Virus record (IMG/VR): IMGVR_UViG_3300032285_002884
Length of the DNA: 64,000 nt
Source of the DNA: a virus
Reading direction: 5' to 3' (one strand)
Part shown: positions 10,446-44,839 of the stretch, one piece after another
How the letters are laid out: every line of letters starts with the position of its first letter
Numbering within the stretch: position 1 is the first letter of the stretch
Program-made: the position numbers and the translations under genes
The notes under the pieces: generated by a model
Databases searched by the model: none
What the model was told of the DNA's origin: nothing
What the model saw: only the letters and a program-made list of their open reading frames with translations

Positions 10446-11296
10446 TCGACTACATCGCTCTGTCGATAGCCCTCTCGGTGTCAGCTGTCTCGGGATACTA
10501 CTCAATCATCGGGTTGACTACTATCTTCTCGGCTTCTTTCTGGCCAGTTGTGGTCATGGGCTGCGTACTCGAGGCAGGTAAGCTCGTCTCTGCGTCTTGG
10601 CTGTACCGTAACTGGAAGACTGCGCCGCTCTTTCTCAAGTCATACCTTACACTGGCAGTAGTCGTCTTGATGCTCATCACGAGCATGGGTATCTTTGGGT
10701 TCCTATCCAAGGCACACATCGATCAACAGATAAACATAACTACCGGCAACGCCGATAAAGTACTCGTCATCAATAATAAGATCGATGTCGAGACTCAGAC
10801 AATCAAGGACATCGATCTGCAGATATCACAGATCGACAACGCAGTAACTAAGATGACAGACAAGGGGCAGGCCCAGTCGTCTCTGAACGCGGCAGACAGA
10901 CAGAGGAAGCTTCGAGATGATCTCACTAAACAAAAGAACGCACATGTCGATACGCTATCAAAGCTTAAAGAAGAAAAGATACCGCTTGAGTCTAGTCTCA
11001 AGAAGATGGAAGCTGAAGTCGGACCAATCAAGTACATCGCTCAGCTACTATTTACCGATGCTGGCAGCGAAAATCTCGAGAGAGCCATCAGAGGTGTCAT
11101 TCTTCTCTTGGTGATCGTGTTCGACCCTCTCGCGGTAGTCCTTCTCATCGCAGCGAACAGCGGGCTAGCTCGCAATCAAGTCGAAGAAGAAGTGAGACCT
11201 AAAAAGAAGCAGTTGACAAATAAGCCAAAACGTGATAATATATTAAAGATCGATAATAACAACATTACGCAGTTCATAGACAAGGAGAAGCCATGA
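10442..11296 (+). CDS. multi-pass membrane protein with coiled coil
   Basis: 3 N-terminal TMs, coiled coil, C-terminal TM (VFDPLAV). Confidence 0.8.
   Translation: MIDYIALSIALSVSAVSGYYSIIGLTTIFSASFWPVVVMGCVLEAGKLVSASWLYRNWKTAPLFLKSYLTLAVVVLMLITSMGIFGFLSKAHIDQQINITTGNADKVLVINNKIDVETQTIKDIDLQISQIDNAVTKMTDKGQAQSSLNAADRQRKLRDDLTKQKNAHVDTLSKLKEEKIPLESSLKKMEAEVGPIKYIAQLLFTDAGSENLERAIRGVILLLVIVFDPLAVVLLIAANSGLARNQVEEEVRPKKKQLTNKPKRDNILKIDNNNITQFIDKEKP
11213..11241 (+). promoter_or_regulatory. internal sigma70 promoter TTGACA-17-TAATAT for uvsX
   Basis: Consensus with TG extension. Confidence 0.65.
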
Positions 11297-12366
11297 GTAA
11301 TTTCTTTCGTAACTTCGTTGAGCAGATCAAGGACGACGATACCTCGATCATGGCCGACGGCAAGGGCTCAGCCGAGTTCAGCGGAACCATCGACACAGGC
11401 AGCTACATCATGAACGCTGTCTTGTCTGGAAGTCTCTATGGCGGCATCCCAAACAACAAGATCACTGCCTTTGCGGGTGAGTCAGCTACCGGTAAGACGT
11501 TCTTCGTCCTCGGCATCGTTAAGTCGTTCCTTGACCAGAACCCCAATGCCGGTGTAGTCTACTACGACACCGAGGCAGCGGTCACCAAGAACATGATGGA
11601 GGAGCGCGGCATCGACACGCAGCGAGTCGTCATCGCCGAGGTCGACACTGTCCAGAAGTTCCGTCACCACGCTCTCAAGATGATCGACTCCTATGAGAAG
11701 GTCAAGGAGAAGGAGCGTCCGCCTATGATGTTCATCCTTGACTCGCTCGGCCAGCTGTCGTCTACCAAGGAAATGGAAGACACTGCCGAGGGCAAGGAGA
11801 CCCGCGACATGACGAAGGCACAGATCATCAAGGCAGCCTTCCGCGTCTTGACTCTCCGACTCGCCAAGGTCGGCGTCCCTATGCTCGTCACCAACCACGT
11901 CTACGCTGCCATGGGTTCTATGTTCCCGACCAACGAGATGGCCGGCGGCTCTGGTCTCAAGTACTCTGCCTCCACGATCGCCATGCTCTCGAAGCGCAAG
12001 GAGAAGGACGGCAACGAGGTCATCGGCAACATCGTCCACGTCAAGATGTACAAGTCTCGTCTCTCCAAGGAGAACAAGATGGTCGACGTCCTCCTTACCT
12101 ACAAGGACGGTCTCGACCGCTGGTACGGTCTGCTCGAGTTGGCCGAGCGTCATGGCGTGTTCAAGAAGGTCAGCACTCGCTTCGAGATGCCAGACGGCTC
12201 TAAGGTCTTTGGTAAGACGATCAACGACAATCCCGAGAAGTACTTTACCAAGGAAGTGATGGCGATGCTCGAGGCTGCGGCCAACAAGGAGTTCCGCTAC
12301 GGCTCCGGTGACGAGCCGGTCAAGTATGACCCAGAGACCGGAGAGATCAATGAGACTGACGAATGA
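11293..12366 (+). CDS. uvsX: RecA-like recombinase
   Basis: GESATGKT Walker A, DSLG and GGSGLKY motifs. Confidence 0.95.
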   Translation: MSNFFRNFVEQIKDDDTSIMADGKGSAEFSGTIDTGSYIMNAVLSGSLYGGIPNNKITAFAGESATGKTFFVLGIVKSFLDQNPNAGVVYYDTEAAVTKNMMEERGIDTQRVVIAEVDTVQKFRHHALKMIDSYEKVKEKERPPMMFILDSLGQLSSTKEMEDTAEGKETRDMTKAQIIKAAFRVLTLRLAKVGVPMLVTNHVYAAMGSMFPTNEMAGGSGLKYSASTIAMLSKRKEKDGNEVIGNIVHVKMYKSRLSKENKMVDVLLTYKDGLDRWYGLLELAERHGVFKKVSTRFEMPDGSKVFGKTINDNPEKYFTKEVMAMLEAAANKEFRYGSGDEPVKYDPETGEINETDE

Positions 12367-12613
12367 GGTCTTCTACAGTCTAGATAGAAGGCGCAAGGGT
12401 GAGGTCAGAGTAGACGGCGACGTCTACGTCTGCCTCTTCTTTGAAGATGATAAACTGATTGGTGTCCAGCCATGTCCAGACAAGAGCATCTGGTGGGCTC
12501 GCGACGTAGCTGAGAACTTTACACTGGGGATTCTGAATGTCGATAGAGAAGGTGATCTTCGCGAACCTGCTGGCGACGGAGGGGTTCGGACGGAAGGTAA
12601 TCCCGTTCCTTAA
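12350..12613 (+). CDS. hypothetical protein
   Basis: GGAG RBS; KSIWWARDVAENF motif; overlaps the gp41 start. Confidence 0.55.
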   Translation: MRLTNEVFYSLDRRRKGEVRVDGDVYVCLFFEDDKLIGVQPCPDKSIWWARDVAENFTLGILNVDREGDLREPAGDGGVRTEGNPVP

Positions 12614-13940
12614 GTCTGAGTACTTTCTCGATCACGGCGATCGAGTAGTATTCGACGTCATCAACGAGTACGTCAACAAGTACAACGGCTTTCCTTCCAA
12701 GGAAGCGCTGCTCATCGAGCTCTCGAACAGGTCGGGAGTCGGTGAGAACCAATACAAGTCAATCAAGGAGACTGTCGAGTCACTCGATGTCAGAGGCGAG
12801 ACCAACGTCGACTGGCTCGTAGACCAGACCGAGAAGTTCTGCAAAGACAAGGCAGTCTACAACGCGATCATGGCGTCTATCCAGATCATCGACGACAAGA
12901 CGGGTAAGCTGTCGCCGGGGACCATCCCTCAGCTCCTCAGCGACGCACTCGGCGTAAGCTTCGATACGAACATCGGTCACGACTTCATCGAGGACGCCAC
13001 AGAGCGATTTGACTTCTATCACCAGAAACTAAACAGGGTTCCGTTCGATCTCGAGTACTTCAACACGATAACGAACGGAGGGTTGCCGAACAAAACACTT
13101 AACGTTGCTCTAGCCGGTACAGGCGTGGGTAAGTCTTTGTTTATGTGTCACTGTGCCGCCGGCAACCTAACCAAGGGACAGCGAGTGCTCTACATCACTA
13201 TGGAAATGGCTGAGAAGGAGATAGCAAAGCGCGTCGATGCTAACCTTCTCGATGTGACGATGGACGAGCTCTCGCTGCTTCCCAAGGACTTATATGACAA
13301 GAAGGTGGCAAAGGTAAGGGCCAAGACTGTCGGCAAGCTTATCATCAAGGAGTACCCGACTGCCGGTGCCGGCTCTGCCAACTTCAGACACCTTCTCAAC
13401 GAGCTCAAGATCAAGAAGAACTTCACGCCGGACATCATCTATATCGACTACCTGAACATCTGTCTGTCGTCTCGTCTCAAGCTCAGTGCCAACGTCAACT
13501 CCTACACCTACGTAAAGGCAATCGCCGAGGAGCTTCGCGGCCTAGCCGTCGAGTTCAACGTCCCGATCGTCACCGCTACCCAGACTACTCGTTCCGGCTT
13601 TGCCTCGAGTGACGTCGAGCTTACCGACACGTCAGAGTCGTTCGGTCTTCCAGCCACTGCCGACTTCATGTTCGCCCTAGTCTCAAACGAGAAGCTGGCC
13701 GACCTGAGTCAGCTTCTGGTCAAGCAGCTCAAGAACAGGTACAACGACCCTGCTAAGAACCGAAAGTTCGTAGTCGGTATTGACAGGTCAAAGATGAGAC
13801 TCTACGACGTAGAGGACTCAGCGCAGGAAGACTTACTCGACGGTCCAGTCTTCGACTCATCGAAGTTCGGGGATGAAGACAATGAGCGCGGTAAGAAGGG
13901 TAAGAAGTTCGACAAGTCAAAGTTTGAGGGATTCAAATGA
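12537..13940 (+). CDS. gp41: replicative DnaB-like helicase
   Basis: AGTGVGKS, IIKEYPT, YIDYLNI and TSESFGLPATAD motifs. Confidence 0.97.
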   Translation: MSIEKVIFANLLATEGFGRKVIPFLKSEYFLDHGDRVVFDVINEYVNKYNGFPSKEALLIELSNRSGVGENQYKSIKETVESLDVRGETNVDWLVDQTEKFCKDKAVYNAIMASIQIIDDKTGKLSPGTIPQLLSDALGVSFDTNIGHDFIEDATERFDFYHQKLNRVPFDLEYFNTITNGGLPNKTLNVALAGTGVGKSLFMCHCAAGNLTKGQRVLYITMEMAEKEIAKRVDANLLDVTMDELSLLPKDLYDKKVAKVRAKTVGKLIIKEYPTAGAGSANFRHLLNELKIKKNFTPDIIYIDYLNICLSSRLKLSANVNSYTYVKAIAEELRGLAVEFNVPIVTATQTTRSGFASSDVELTDTSESFGLPATADFMFALVSNEKLADLSQLLVKQLKNRYNDPAKNRKFVVGIDRSKMRLYDVEDSAQEDLLDGPVFDSSKFGDEDNERGKKGKKFDKSKFEGFK

Positions 13941-14152
13941 ACTGCGAAGTAGTCAAGTGGAACGACCGAAAGTTCTCAGTAGTCGAGAAGAGGACAGAAT
14001 GCATACTATCTGACTTTCCTAACCACAAAGATGCTAAGAACTACGCTAGGTTCTTAAACATGGGTGGTGGGTTTGACGGGTGGACTCCCTTCTTTATTTT
14101 GAAAAAAATTAATGTAGATGAGCTAGAAAATACGAGAGACTCGTATAAATAA
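13937..14152 (+). CDS. hypothetical protein (GGGFDGWTP)
   Basis: ATGA overlap with gp41. Confidence 0.7.
   Translation: MNCEVVKWNDRKFSVVEKRTECILSDFPNHKDAKNYARFLNMGGGFDGWTPFFILKKINVDELENTRDSYK
14144..14151 (+). promoter_or_regulatory. late promoter TATAAATA
   Basis: Exact T4 late consensus. Confidence 0.8.
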
Positions 14153-14156
14153 CTTC

Positions 14157-14310
14157 ATGATTATATTTTTTGATCATCTCGACGTGTTTGTGTCTGCAGC
14201 ACAAGTGGCAAGCCGTAAGGATTGGAATTGACAGGTCGCCGTCTAGGTAGGTGGGGTTCCTCCTGTCCGCGTTGTTAAAGCAAGGGAAGCTCGAAAGGGC
14301 TTCCCTTTTT
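14157..14310 (+). ncRNA. candidate structured, pseudoknotted ncRNA
   Basis: Own promoter and terminator; helices GACGTG/CGCGTT, TTTGTG/CACAAG, GACAGG/CCTGTC, TCGCC/GGTGG; pseudoknot GGAATT/GGTTCC. Confidence 0.55.
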
Positions 14311-14311
14311 T
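14282..14311 (+). terminator. Rho-independent terminator
   Basis: AAGGGAAGCTC-GAAA-GGGCTTCCCTT plus T-tract. Confidence 0.9.
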
Positions 14312-14356
14312 ATTAGATAAATATCATATCGCGGCTATGAGCTAATAGGATTAAGC

Positions 14357-15304
14357 ATGAAGTCTTTTAAGAGCTTTATCACCGAAGGCATAAGACAGGG
14401 TCTTCCTCACATCACTACTATGGACCATAACCAGATAAGCGATCTGGTTCACGGTGGAAAAGTCAAGATAGATCAGGCGACTGAGAAGACTGACGGATCT
14501 ACCATGATGATGGGCCACGACGAGCATGGATTCTATACACAGAGTTCGGGTTCCGGTGACGAGAGGATGAGGGAGCCCGCCGACTATATCGATAGAGCCA
14601 AGAGACGAGCTGAACAGACTGGTAAGCCTCTCGACCTGACCGCCGCTAACGCGTTCGGCGAGGCACATGCTCAGATGCAGGGCAACAAGAACCTTACCGA
14701 CCATCTTAAGCAGAGGGCTGAAGAGTCCGGCGGTGAGACCAAGGTCCGCGGTGAGCTATTCTCCAAGAGACTCTCCCGACCTTCTGAGACTCCTGGCGAG
14801 ATCAAGTTCGTCGGAACGTCTTACGACCCCAGCCACATGGGCAGCACCGGAAAGTTCGTCATCCATACCAAGCTCCCAGAGAACCAAGGACACGATGTCG
14901 AGAAGTTTAAGAACGAGTTGTCTACTCCCGGACTCAACTTCGACGACGACAACATCAAGGGCTTCAAGCCAAGCGAGATCGATGTCGCCAAGGAAGCCAA
15001 GGACCTCGGCAGCGTGAACAGGGAGCTCCTCTCTTCTAGGACTACCCCTAAGAACAAGGCTGCTAAGGAAGCCGAGAACGAGAAGCTGATGGAGATCAAG
15101 AAGAGGGTCTCCGACAAAGTCGACACACACATCAAGTCTCAAGGATTCTCTCCTAAGTGGGGTTCAGGATCCGAGGGTATCGTAGTCCACCCACCTAAGA
15201 ACTCGACAGCACCAAGATTCAAAGTAACGTCTGACGCATTCAGGGAGTACAAGGCTGACCCTGAGAACGCGAAGAAGTTCAAAGAAAGGACCCCGAAGCA
15301 ATGA
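14357..15304 (+). CDS. RNA-ligase-like covalent nucleotidyltransferase with capsid-targeting N-terminus
   Basis: Motifs I EKTDG, III RGELF, IV EGIVV, V RFKV; N-terminus MKSFKSFITE; ATAAATA at 14317. Confidence 0.75.
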   Translation: MKSFKSFITEGIRQGLPHITTMDHNQISDLVHGGKVKIDQATEKTDGSTMMMGHDEHGFYTQSSGSGDERMREPADYIDRAKRRAEQTGKPLDLTAANAFGEAHAQMQGNKNLTDHLKQRAEESGGETKVRGELFSKRLSRPSETPGEIKFVGTSYDPSHMGSTGKFVIHTKLPENQGHDVEKFKNELSTPGLNFDDDNIKGFKPSEIDVAKEAKDLGSVNRELLSSRTTPKNKAAKEAENEKLMEIKKRVSDKVDTHIKSQGFSPKWGSGSEGIVVHPPKNSTAPRFKVTSDAFREYKADPENAKKFKERTPKQ

Positions 15305-16785
15305 TCACTTTCAAGAACTTCATACTCAAAGAAGGCGGCAACATCAAGGTCAAGACCGTCGACGGCGAGGTAGCTGCGGCTCCGTTCAAGGTCAAGGACA
15401 GGTCAAAGCAGGCAGGCGATATCAAGGACGCTCTCGGAGCCATGCACGACTCCTTTAGTAAGGAGCACGGAGCAGACCTCTTTGGTAAAGGTAAGAAGGC
15501 ACTTAATTCAGGTTCAATGTTTGCTGGCTCGACTCGTCAGTTCATGGACTCCAGTATCCCTGATGATGAGTTCAAGAAGCACAAGCCGATCGTCGGCGAC
15601 ATCGACGCACAGTTCCCAGCTGAGCACAAGGACAAGCTAGTTACACACCTGACTCCTGGACGCAAGTTCGGTAAGTATACTGTAATCGGTACAAGGAAGC
15701 ACGGCACCGAGGTCTCTGCGGTAATCAAGCACGACAACGGCGAGCACCATCAGGTCGACTTTGAGCCAGTTCACTATCATAACGATGAGCCGACTCCAGG
15801 CGAGCAGCTTTTGCACAACTCATCATGGGAAGACACTAAGGCCGGCATAAAGGGTCTCCACCACAAGGTGCTCCTCAACGCAACGGGTCTCGACCACCAT
15901 AAGTTCTCTATCAGCCACGGACTAAGGTCTAGGTCTGATGAGTCAGACATGGGAGTCAAGGAACCTGAGCAGGTCACATCGGGACTGTTCGGCAAGAAAG
16001 CAGATCCGAGCAAGATAACGTCATTCCAGGGCGTAACGCAGCTCATCAAGAAGCACATCCCTAAGGAACAGCATCAGGCCATCTACGAGAAGTTCAGGGA
16101 CAGCGTAAGCAAGATGAAGGGTACCGACCACTCGGCAGCCCTAGCCCACCTCAGACAGCATCTGGACGTCAAGGACGCCGTCAGCGAGGAGAGCATGGGC
16201 GACCAGCACGCCTCGGCCATCCCTATGGTAGGTTTCAGCCCGATCTCTCACATGGGACACGCGCAGGACCTCGGCGGAGCGCTGAAAAAGCTTCCGGGAT
16301 CAAAGCACATCGGCATCTCCTCTAAGGCTGACGCTTTCTCTCCCGAAGAGAGAAAGTCTATCCTTAGCAGACAGTGGGGCGACACCGACAACAATCACGT
16401 CCATATCGTAGGCGGTGCAGGCGAGACTATCAGGAGAGCCCATGACTCGATGACTGGTCCTGGAAGAAAGATCCTACATATTCTCGTAGGTAAGGACAGG
16501 GCATCGTTTGCCGAGGGTCTCAAGAAGTCACTCGAGCAGGGCAAGATAAAGGAGATGGAGGGTCGCAAGTTCGACGAGGTCCACGTTCACTATCCCGAGG
16601 ATACCGAGCGGACCCACGGCATGAGCGGTACTAGGATGAGGGCGGCGGCTAACGAGGACGGCAAGGATGCCGCCGACGAGTTCCACCGCCACTTAGGTTC
16701 GATGTTCAGTCGCGATGAGTCGAACAACATCAAGAGCAAGATCAAGGCAGGAATCCAGTCAGGTAAGATCCCACTTAAGAGGTAA
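15301..16785 (+). CDS. two-domain nucleotidyltransferase (pol-beta-like + HIGH/cytidylyltransferase-like), capsid-targeted
   Basis: AGS...GDID...QVDF; then SHMGH, VGKDR, MSGTRMR; N-terminus MITFKNFILKE. Confidence 0.75.
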   Translation: MITFKNFILKEGGNIKVKTVDGEVAAAPFKVKDRSKQAGDIKDALGAMHDSFSKEHGADLFGKGKKALNSGSMFAGSTRQFMDSSIPDDEFKKHKPIVGDIDAQFPAEHKDKLVTHLTPGRKFGKYTVIGTRKHGTEVSAVIKHDNGEHHQVDFEPVHYHNDEPTPGEQLLHNSSWEDTKAGIKGLHHKVLLNATGLDHHKFSISHGLRSRSDESDMGVKEPEQVTSGLFGKKADPSKITSFQGVTQLIKKHIPKEQHQAIYEKFRDSVSKMKGTDHSAALAHLRQHLDVKDAVSEESMGDQHASAIPMVGFSPISHMGHAQDLGGALKKLPGSKHIGISSKADAFSPEERKSILSRQWGDTDNNHVHIVGGAGETIRRAHDSMTGPGRKILHILVGKDRASFAEGLKKSLEQGKIKEMEGRKFDEVHVHYPEDTERTHGMSGTRMRAAANEDGKDAADEFHRHLGSMFSRDESNNIKSKIKAGIQSGKIPLKR

Positions 16786-16790
16786 GGTAG

Positions 16791-17396
16791 ATGAAGAGCT
16801 TCAGCGAGTACATCATAGAGAACAGCGTACACTTCTTCGACGTCGACAAGACGCTGATGGACACGGGTAGTACTCACGTGCACGTCAAGGACGAGAACGG
16901 CAATACCGTGCAGAAGCTCGACCCGCAGGAGTACAACCATCACAAGCTGCAGCCCGGTCACAGCTACGACTTCCACGAGTTCAAATCATCCGATAAGTTC
17001 GCCAAGTCAGCAAAGCCTATCCGCAAGGTGCTGGCTAAGATGAAGGCTATCAAGAAGAACGGCGGTAGGACTGAGATCTTAACTGCCCGCGCTGACTTCG
17101 ACGACAAGGACAAGTTCGCTAAGAAGTGGAAGTCTTTCGGTGTCGACATCGGTCCAGGTCAGACCCACGTCAGGCGAGCCGGTAACATCAAGCTTCCAAC
17201 TCACGAGGCTAAGGCTAAGATCATATCTGATCAGATCAAGAAGAACGGATATAAGAAAGTTCACCTGTACGACGATCACTTACCTAACATACAATCGATG
17301 ATGGACCTCAAGAAAGATCATCCCGACGTCGAGTTCCACGGATATCACGTAAAGCACGGTCCCGATGGCGTGACCATGGACCACTACAAGGCATAA
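16791..17396 (+). CDS. HAD-family phosphatase (RNA-repair type), capsid-targeted
   Basis: FDVDKTL, LTAR, K and YDD motifs; N-terminus MKSFSEYIIE. Confidence 0.8.
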   Translation: MKSFSEYIIENSVHFFDVDKTLMDTGSTHVHVKDENGNTVQKLDPQEYNHHKLQPGHSYDFHEFKSSDKFAKSAKPIRKVLAKMKAIKKNGGRTEILTARADFDDKDKFAKKWKSFGVDIGPGQTHVRRAGNIKLPTHEAKAKIISDQIKKNGYKKVHLYDDHLPNIQSMMDLKKDHPDVEFHGYHVKHGPDGVTMDHYKA

Positions 17397-33390: not shown

Positions 33391-33467
33391 GCCCACGTAA
33401 CCCAATAGGCAGAGGTACAAGACTTAAAATTTTGGAAGTGTGGGTTCGACCCCCACCGTGGGCACCA
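33391..33467 (+). tRNA. tRNA-Leu(UAA), short variable loop
   Basis: GCCCACG/CGTGGGC acceptor; CAAGA-CTTAAAA-TTTTG; TTCGA loop; encoded CCA. Confidence 0.9.
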
Positions 33468-34321: not shown

Positions 34322-34396
34322 GGACCTGTAGCTTAAAGGTGAAGCCGGCCGCTCATAACGGTCTGAGTGTAGGTTCGAGTCCTACTGGGTCCACCA
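34322..34396 (+). tRNA. tRNA(CAU), most likely Ile2 (lysidine substrate)
   Basis: GGACCTG/TGGGTCC acceptor with C4-G69 and C5-G68; GGCCG-CTCATAA-CGGTC; no initiator features. Confidence 0.85.
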
Positions 34397-43731: not shown

Positions 43732-44219
43732 AAGACAACTACTTTAGATTCCACTTTCCACACATCCACCTTCAGAGCCCCTTCGGCGACGACGGCTTTG
43801 CCATCATGGCCGAGAGGTTCGCCCGTTTCTTCGGCACCCCGATCTTCTTGATAATCCAGACAGCCTTAGTGCTTATCTGGATGGGACTCAACGTCTTTGG
43901 ATACACTGCCTTCGACGTCTATCCATTCATTCTTCTCAACCTAGCCTTCTCGACTCAGGCAGCATACGCTGCACCCCTGATCCTCTTGGCACAGACTCGA
44001 CAGGCTGACCGAGACAAGGCCCACGCCGAGGCAGACGCCCAGCACCGTGAAGACCTAGCCATGGCAGCTGCACAGCGGCAGCAGATCGCAGCAGAGCAGA
44101 CGGCCATCCTTCTCGAGATGCTTCACGAGAACAACAAGCTAGTCAAGAAGATCGAGAAGCTGACTAAAGAGATCCACACGATCACGACAAAGGGTGTTGA
44201 CAAAAATAGCAAGTCGTGA
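43728..44219 (+). CDS. DUF1003 membrane protein
   Basis: FD.YPFILLNLAFSTQAAYAAPLILLAQ.RQ..RD. Confidence 0.9.
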   Translation: MKDNYFRFHFPHIHLQSPFGDDGFAIMAERFARFFGTPIFLIIQTALVLIWMGLNVFGYTAFDVYPFILLNLAFSTQAAYAAPLILLAQTRQADRDKAHAEADAQHREDLAMAAAQRQQIAAEQTAILLEMLHENNKLVKKIEKLTKEIHTITTKGVDKNSKS

Positions 44220-44227
44220 TATAAATA
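44197..44227 (+). promoter_or_regulatory. dual early/late promoter TTGACA-17-TATAAATA for tmRNA
   Basis: The -10 element doubles as the T4 late consensus. Confidence 0.75.
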
Positions 44228-44231
44228 GTAT

Positions 44232-44522
44232 ATGCTGATGTCGATGACGAAAGCGAAATAGACATGCTGGACGCGGGGGCGGTACCCGCCGCCTCCACCA
44301 CAGATACATCGGTCGCCATAGTCGGAACAAATATGGTGTAATAGGTTTCTCCGAACATCCGATGTATCTTTGATGGGGGCGAAATAGGATCGACAGGTGT
44401 GTTAAAGGCGGACCGAGACAGAAGCATAAATAAGTTATCTGCAAACGATAATTCACTTCTTGAGATGCGCCTAGCGGCTTAATCTCTTGGGTATGGGTTC
44501 CACCTCGAAACAGAACGGGCCC
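44232..44522 (+). ncRNA. ssrA: two-piece (circularly permuted) tmRNA, alphaproteobacterial type; tag ANDNSLLEMRLAA
   Basis: Acceptor piece ends CGCCTCCACCA at 44300 with a GGCGGTA T-loop; coding piece starts GGGGGCGAAATAGGATCGAC at 44375; G3-U70; tag at 44441-44482. Confidence 0.93.
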
Positions 44523-44550
44523 ACTTCACACATCACACAGGAGAACTAAA

Positions 44551-44754
44551 ATGACTAAGACACCTTACGAGATCCGTCTCGACGTTCTGAACTTCGCACA
44601 GAATCAGCTGCAGGGAGAATACTTTGCTCAGATGGAGCGTATTCGCATGCAGAAAGATCTCAACTTACCCGTCGAATCAATTCCTAGCTATCCGACCAAG
44701 GATGACATCATCTTTCTAGCTGAAAGCCTTAAGAACTTCGTCGACACGAAGTAA
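44551..44754 (+). CDS. conserved hypothetical (TPYEIRLDVL)
   Basis: AGGAG RBS. Confidence 0.75.
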   Translation: MTKTPYEIRLDVLNFAQNQLQGEYFAQMERIRMQKDLNLPVESIPSYPTKDDIIFLAESLKNFVDTK

Positions 44755-44762
44755 GCTATAAC

Positions 44763-44839
44763 GGTCTCATAGCTCAGCTGTATAGAGCAGCCGCCTTCTA
44801 AGCGGCAGGTCGTTGGTTAGAGTCCAACTGAGATCACCA
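44763..44839 (+). tRNA. tRNA-Arg(UCU)
   Basis: GGTCTCA/TGAGATC acceptor; GCCGC-CTTCTAA-GCGGC; A20; CCA. Confidence 0.9.

Follow-up and report, generated by a model that had tools for sequence, protein, structure and literature searches.

Phage T4 encodes two small stable non-coding RNAs of unknown function, species C and D, whose genes are part of the tRNA cluster and which arise by processing of longer transcripts. The pRNA of phi29-like podoviruses is a phage-encoded, trans-acting, multi-helix RNA of ~120-170 nt that forms part of a protein machine, whereas for T4-type packaging we know of no RNA requirement. 6S RNA and the bacterial Y RNAs are products of stand-alone small RNA genes, in which a conserved fold, and not pairing to a target, is the active principle. 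To our knowledge, few phages encode a structured RNA as a separate gene, and a role is known for only a small number of such RNAs. The manA and wcaG motifs are structured RNAs of T4-like cyanophages, for which a cis-regulatory role has been suggested in view of their location in 5' UTRs (Weinberg et al. 2010, PMC2864571).

Here, we analyzed a predicted RNA gene at positions 14144-14311 (+ strand) of a 64,000-nt stretch of DNA (hereafter, the window) from the IMG/VR record IMGVR_UViG_3300032285_002884. Like manA and wcaG, which are carried by marine T4-like phages and known mostly from metagenomes, this is a structured RNA found by comparative analysis; however, those motifs are in Rfam and gave no match here, and the RNA described here is flanked by a promoter and a terminator and has no fixed downstream gene. 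It differs from T4 species C and D in its location after gp41 and in having its own late promoter. With phi29 pRNA it shares the features of a phage-encoded multi-helix RNA of comparable length, but none of the curated phage families in the Rfam library reached an E value of 10 here. Neither sequence nor structure matched 6S or Y RNA, and the architecture is a different one, with four helices meeting in a junction and a 7-nt loop that never varies.

The source record is a single contig of 150.6 kb with 50.7% G+C and represents a T4-like phage. Upstream of the RNA unit are the genes for UvsX (11293-12366) and the gp41 helicase (12537-13940), the latter having its nearest cultured relatives, at ~60% identity, in Stenotrophomonas phage DLP_6, Methylophilales phage Melnitz and cyanophages. 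Just after gp41 follows a 71-aa ORF (13937-14152, + strand), whose TAA stop codon is overlapped by a predicted T4-type late promoter, an exact TATAAATA (14144-14151, + strand). Promoters of this type consist of a -10 element without a -35 element and lie ~6 nt upstream of the start, and from the promoter position the transcript is predicted to begin at ~14157. The next ~125 nt hold no convincing gene and are followed by an intrinsic terminator (14282-14311, + strand), whose 11-bp GC-rich stem carries a GAAA loop and precedes a run of U. Beyond it, a second late-promoter-like word, ATAAATA (14317-14323, + strand), is positioned for the next gene (ATG at 14357). In the entire window, TATAAATA occurs five times against 0.59 expected, four of them on the + (coding) strand. 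The exact TATAAATA, the strong terminator and the roughly 150 nt without a gene that had been noted in the preliminary description were all confirmed, and no conserved ORF was found between promoter and terminator.

The folding energy of the + strand was -50.4 kcal/mol (z -2.2, compared with -1.4 for the - strand). By itself, this fold is only mildly better than shuffled sequences and is weak evidence; it is the homologues that carry the evidential weight. A search with the covariance model described below found a single copy of the RNA in the phage genome, which is in keeping with an independent gene.

In local blastn searches against 80 gp41 loci, short stretches of conserved sequence appeared 200-500 nt beyond gp41. 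On reading these regions, we found a common layout consisting of the small ORF, TATAAATA, a core of ~100-120 nt, a terminator and often another TATAAATA, with GAGGCA(A/C)G, GGAAUAG and GGUGGGGUUCC as recurring words in the core. Viral contigs were then scanned with a pattern composed of GGAA.AG....G, a gap of 3-30 and GGTGGGGTTCC, and at least 120 stretches matched. Among the matches listed, 103 distinct sequences were retained after removal of duplicates and five false matches, and all 103 had an [ACGT]TAAATA word upstream. A covariance model of 95 positions and 21 pairs was built from a 27-sequence subset, and it aligned 94 homologues (93 distinct) among the matches listed. Since GGAA and GGUGGGGUUCC were fixed by the collecting pattern, their invariance is partly by construction. 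In a small sample of hits found independently of the pattern, through gp41 synteny, the apical hairpin varied at stem positions only and its loop was unchanged.

With at least 120 stretches in the pattern scan, the RNA is widespread across a large uncultured branch of T4-like phages. Sufficient downstream sequence was available for 69 gp41 loci, of which 21 contained both the small ORF and the RNA, 15 the ORF only, one the RNA only and 32 neither. In the 15 ORF-only loci, a late promoter at the end of the ORF would drive the next gene directly. Relatives of the gene downstream of the unit in the window were present in 26 viral contigs, and only two nearly identical contigs among them had the unit upstream, so the unit does not travel with this gene; it travels with gp41 instead. 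The covariance model found no match in the complete genomes of Melnitz-3 (a Methylophilales phage), DLP_6 (a Stenotrophomonas phage) or DSL-LC02 (a Synechococcus phage), and blastn searches of 50,697 GenBank phage records with the unit of the window and the best-scoring homologue gave none or chance matches. When bacterial and archaeal genomes were scanned with the pattern, the 80 loci tested among the matches listed were chance hits except for one (L296), a real match located on a 1.7-kb contig that had been binned into a metagenome-assembled genome and is probably phage DNA. In the collections examined, the RNA thus occurs in uncultured T4-like phages only.

Four loci that lack the RNA (L078:5062-5320, L093:3246-3500, L075:5028-5200 and L085:3699-3800) have a long GC-rich hairpin after the small ORF, together with repeated ATCAAT(C/G)ACTTAGCC words. 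These features may represent another regulatory or promoter element.

The homologues support a common architecture, in which four helices (P1-P4) form a four-way junction and P4 is capped, beyond a bulge, by an apical hairpin. In the alignment of 94 sequences produced by the covariance model (A3), 95.2% of cells pair and double changes occur in 20 of the 21 pairs. The covariation score of 0.79 compares with 0.23 for shuffled alignments (none of 500 reached the observed value) and with at most 0.145 when partners were slid. Fitting the alignment to the model biases it in favour of the model, which is why the results of two structure-blind MAFFT alignments matter. The alignment of all 103 sequences (A1) yielded P4 and the closing pair around GGUGGGGUUCC, which was CG in 52, AU in 34, UA in 15 and GC in two sequences and broken in none. 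The alignment of the 27-sequence subset (A2) supported P1 and P2, with 89% of cells pairing and a covariation score of 0.53 (0.22 shuffled, at most 0.13 slid). The pairs of the model also ranked on top by mutual information, and a mutual-information search for additional or long-range pairings found none beyond the given helices. Compensatory changes in these homologues from downstream of gp41 and from the pattern scan were above the controls.

P1 (14181-86 with 14268-73, + strand) shows double changes at all six pairs, and 94.8% of its cells pair. P2 (14187/88-14193 with 14199-14204/05, + strand) is a hairpin with the loop CUGCA in the window; double changes were again observed at six of six pairs, with 88.5% of cells pairing. 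It is followed by the junction strand J2/3 (14205-14212, + strand), whose conserved columns form the near-unchanging G.GGCA(A/C)G, and by P3 (14213-14220, + strand), a short variable hairpin with the sequence CC-GUAA-GG in the window. A P3 hairpin of -2 kcal/mol or better could be formed in 58 of 94 members and is absent in one subgroup; only one partial covariation signal (CG 32, GC 12, UA 11) was seen in it. The second junction strand, J3/4 (14221-14229, + strand), also consists of conserved columns and contains the unchanging GGAA, subject to the collecting pattern as stated above.

P4 (14230-35 with 14262-67, + strand) pairs in 100% of cells and shows double changes at all six pairs, four of them in 24-30 sequences each and two in a single sequence. 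The 5'-side bulge that follows (14236-14248, + strand) is variable in length, with a 3-bp mini-hairpin (14238-40/14246-48) in the window and a longer P5 hairpin at this position in one subgroup. The apical hairpin, A-GG[UGGGGUU]CC-U (14249-14261, + strand), has a 3-bp stem (14249-51/14259-61) and a 7-nt loop (14252-14258), UGGGGUU, that is unchanging throughout the family. Its closing pair (CG 48, AU 27, UA 15 and GC 2 in the family) had the top mutual-information score. Between the 3' strands of P4 (14262-67) and P1 (14268-73), which together span 14262-14273 on the + strand, there is no nucleotide, and because these strands abut, P1 and P4 probably stack end to end. Overall, ~24 unchanging nucleotides are concentrated in the junction strands and one loop, the stems covary freely, and variable insertions occur at P3 and the bulge.

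Much of the fold proposed in the preliminary description agrees with the family consensus: its P1, P2, CC-GTAA-GG GNRA hairpin and P4 are all present and covary. Its statement that G-U pairs favour structure on the + strand also holds, in that such pairs are frequent on the transcribed strand (for example, 16 at the first pair of P4) and the + strand folds better than its complement. On the other hand, two of its helices were not supported. The proposed P5 (14236-40/14250-54) uses the unchanging GGUGG, which is the 5' arm and part of the loop of the apical hairpin. Both sides of the proposed crossing helix, GGAAUU/GGUUCC, are unchanged in nearly all members, and the two informative loci found through gp41 synteny compensate within the apical stem while keeping the loop, one with C-AG...CU-G (L067) and the other with C-CG...CG-G (L079). 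The CG..CG variant would break the pseudoknot, and L067 has AG..CU. The description of the RNA as pseudoknotted is thus unsupported.

To compare the RNA with known families, we used Rfam 15, which contains 4227 covariance models including riboswitches, self-cleaving ribozymes, 6S, SRP, Y RNA and curated phage RNAs. The region 14144-14311 had no gathering-level hit, and nothing recurred at E values up to 10 among the window, 12 homologue loci and three stretches of 111-131 nt. The rows obtained at this permissive threshold were one-off and unrelated (DdR6, the terminator-driven BjrC1505, GibS, PhrS, STnc390 and Yar_2). Neither ARAGORN nor Rfam detected a tRNA or tmRNA at 14144-14311. Full-text searches of a literature library, including a search for the 11-mer GGUGGGGUUCC itself, gave no description of this RNA. 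The family is considered new in the sense that membership in any known family could not be shown; the idea of a phage small RNA gene is itself not new.

Some look-alikes were considered and rejected. The window contains GGCAA.CC and GGUAGGU.G.GGGGUU.CC, short words that resemble parts of the c-di-GMP-I (GEMM-I) aptamer. GEMM-I was absent from every cmscan even at E values up to 10, the helix count and junction differ, and the GGUAGGU part falls into the bulge, which is variable, and other family members do not conserve it. SAM-I, another look-alike, reached E 10 in no scan. We also observed that GGUGGGGUUCC (14250-14260) has the same sequence as the first 11 nucleotides (1-11) of the E. coli tRNA-Tyr given in PMC13416341; this identity is probably due to chance, since the phage RNA folds the 11-mer as a hairpin and not as an acceptor strand.

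The organization of the transcription unit is retained in the family. In addition to the exact TATAAATA in the window, an (A/C)TAAATA word of predicted late-promoter activity is present upstream in 94 of 94 homologues (ATAAATA in 69 and CTAAATA in 25). It ends 5-27 nt (mode 9 nt) before the model start, a spacing that would place the 5' end of the RNA a few nucleotides before P1. Most members proceed from promoter to P1 within 9-12 nt, and some carry additional unrelated hairpins there, such as the lineage-specific one outside the family core at 14157-14177 (+ strand), common to the window and L002 only, and a different one in L039 (4665-4680), so the 5' end accepts lineage-specific additions. 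By a crude test, a hairpin followed by a T run was found downstream of the core in 76 of 94 homologues.

In one subgroup, characterized by an additional P5 hairpin, promoter, RNA and terminator are all located on the strand opposite to gp41, so the unit is mobile as a whole. These inverted units converge on the small ORF, or on gp41 itself in L067, and no gene is located downstream of them, which argues strongly against a leader, a riboswitch or a 3'-UTR element and for a trans-acting RNA. Considering the compensatory changes in about 90 distinct homologues, their late-type promoters and, in most cases, their terminators, the core proposal of the preliminary description, a stand-alone and previously undescribed phage non-coding RNA, stands. 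From these comparisons, we are highly confident that this is a real, separately transcribed structured RNA.

The best overall explanation, to which we assign a probability of about 0.55, is that the unit constitutes a separate gene, expressed late, whose product is a small structured non-coding RNA that acts in trans through its fold and recognizes a protein. The late transcription machinery would start at TATAAATA, near 14157, and the transcript would fold into the four-way junction P1-P4 with P1 and P4 stacked, P3 being flanked by the conserved single strands G.GGCA(A/C)G and GGAA.AG and P4 being capped, past the variable bulge, by the hairpin with the loop UGGGGUU. The intrinsic terminator would end the RNA at ~150 nt here and at 120-150 nt in its relatives. 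Acting in trans, the RNA could present its unchanging junction strands and loop as a recognition surface, most likely for a protein, and could serve late in infection as the RNA part of an RNA-protein particle or as a decoy. A protein-binding platform or decoy in this specific sense is proposed tentatively from the conservation pattern, at somewhat less than even odds. With its wide distribution, late promoter, aptamer-grade conservation and lack of a curated family, the RNA is a candidate for a new RNA function. It could be investigated in vitro without a cultured host, as a covariance model, an alignment and a candidate partner protein family are at hand.

For such a protein-recognizing RNA, the first candidate partner would be the adjacent small protein. 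The 71-aa ORF in the window belongs to a family of proteins of 57-118 aa with the motif LNxGGGFDGWTPxF, whose members are always located just after gp41 (e.g. L041:4431-4664). The family comprises more than 1000 sequence clusters, none of which has a name. It adjoins the RNA in 21 of the 22 RNA-bearing gp41 loci and is still adjacent, and convergent, when the RNA unit is inverted. The exception is L067, in which the RNA is present and the small protein absent; conversely, 15 loci have the ORF without the RNA. The pairing may therefore reflect only shared gene order. An AlphaFold model of the small protein (pLDDT 80) shows three strands and a helix followed by a GGGFDGWTP loop. A tblastn search against cultured phages found no homolog, and searches of Pfam, PDB sequences and folds gave no convincing match and no clear RNA-binding fold. 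The best fold rows were YaiA (Z 5.3) and proteins resembling AP2 and the lambda Int DNA-binding domain (Z 3-4), together with a few sub-threshold SPOR hits.

The ~24 unchanging junction and loop nucleotides, however, fit a ligand-binding or catalytic RNA equally well. Unchanging junctions and loop, covarying stems and variable insertions are the typical pattern of aptamers and small ribozymes, and the protein partner named above is only a candidate. We place second the explanation that the RNA is a trans-acting aptamer, sequestering a metabolite or signalling nucleotide late in infection, or a ribozyme, for example a self-cleaving one. This explanation appears rather unlikely, as no Rfam aptamer or ribozyme matched even at permissive thresholds, an expression platform was not evident by eye in the window and several homologues, and neither a ligand nor a cleavage site can be named from the sequence. 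Its more specific form, in which the phage makes a free-standing, riboswitch-grade aptamer or ribozyme as a late transcript of its own that binds or sequesters a small molecule, for instance a signalling nucleotide of the host, or performs catalysis, is a somewhat bolder and correspondingly more doubtful idea. If true, a free-standing aptamer would be the RNA counterpart of the protein 'sponges' with which phages counter host defences.

A base-pairing regulatory small RNA, with the loop UGGGGUU or a junction strand as the seed and host or phage mRNAs as targets, has a still smaller chance of being correct. Its own promoter and terminator are indeed those of a stand-alone unit as in bacterial small RNAs, and the loop is single-stranded and conserved. 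However, the phage genome shows no enrichment of the complement of the loop, AACCCCA (seven sites on both strands of the 150.6 kb, none at start codons), and four covarying helices with conserved junction strands exceed the structural need of a seed-type RNA. For these two reasons, a seed-type small RNA is less likely than either a platform or decoy or a free-standing aptamer or ribozyme.

The order of promoter, structured domain, terminator and gene resembles that of a transcriptional riboswitch, and a related enzyme cassette is located 0.1-1.6 kb downstream in 43 of 71 loci. These features would suit a cis-acting leader, either a riboswitch or an attenuator, which decides whether transcription passes the terminator and reaches the late genes behind it. 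Nevertheless, this function is very unlikely. A second late-type word occurs within 140 nt after the terminator in 67 of 94 homologues (in others, a promoter of sigma-70-like type or immediately a gene follows), the downstream genes vary among loci without a conserved association, and inverted units point towards the 3' end of the small ORF or of gp41, so that a same-strand gene to regulate is missing. In the window and a few homologues inspected by eye, no complementarity of the core to the 5' arm of the terminator was seen, and the linker between core and terminator is 8-25 nt long and not conserved.

The recurring cassette consists of DUF6267, a cytidylyltransferase-like HxGH domain and a HAD/PNK-like phosphatase; examples are located at 14357-17396 in the window and at L172:3460-5523, L192:5248-6012 and L231:5035-6282. 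Several of its proteins open with a common N-terminus of the M.SFK.F type. The 43 of 71 loci have a DUF6267 plus cytidylyltransferase-like protein, and the phosphatase was found in another 24; the 494-aa and 201-aa ORFs of the window match the same PHROG families. A link between the RNA and this cassette was considered and rejected: Melnitz carries a DUF6267 gene after gp41 and lacks the RNA, so their adjacency reflects the gene order of this phage group and not a need for the RNA.

The unit keeps a constant position behind the small ORF and gp41, where the replication module borders on the next one, and this could also suggest a feature that acts at the DNA level, for example an origin of replication, a recombination cassette or a spacer between terminator and promoter. 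We regard this as highly improbable, considering that compensatory changes keep RNA helices, that the many G-U pairs would be C-A mismatches on the other strand, and that the orientation of promoter and terminator relative to the fold is kept even when the unit is inverted. Finally, a 24-aa leaderless peptide, MIIFFDHLDVFVSAAQVASRKDWN, raised as an alternative in the preliminary description on account of an ORF (14157-14231) with its ATG at the predicted +1, can be dismissed with near certainty: the window shares the ORF only with the near-identical L002 and L003, neither frame nor start is conserved (ATG near +1 in 15 of 94; longest ORF inside the unit with a median of 14 aa), and a frame common to the family is disrupted by indels in the bulge and in P2 and P3.

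Other RNA genes were also observed in the window. ARAGORN and Rfam identified three tRNAs, for Leu, Met and Arg (33391-33467, 34322-34396 and 44763-44839), and the phage encodes a permuted, two-piece tmRNA of the alphaproteobacterial type (44193-44573; Rfam score 113.6 bits). One of the TATAAATA occurrences, at 44220, falls within the tmRNA gene. The type of this tmRNA may hint at the host group.
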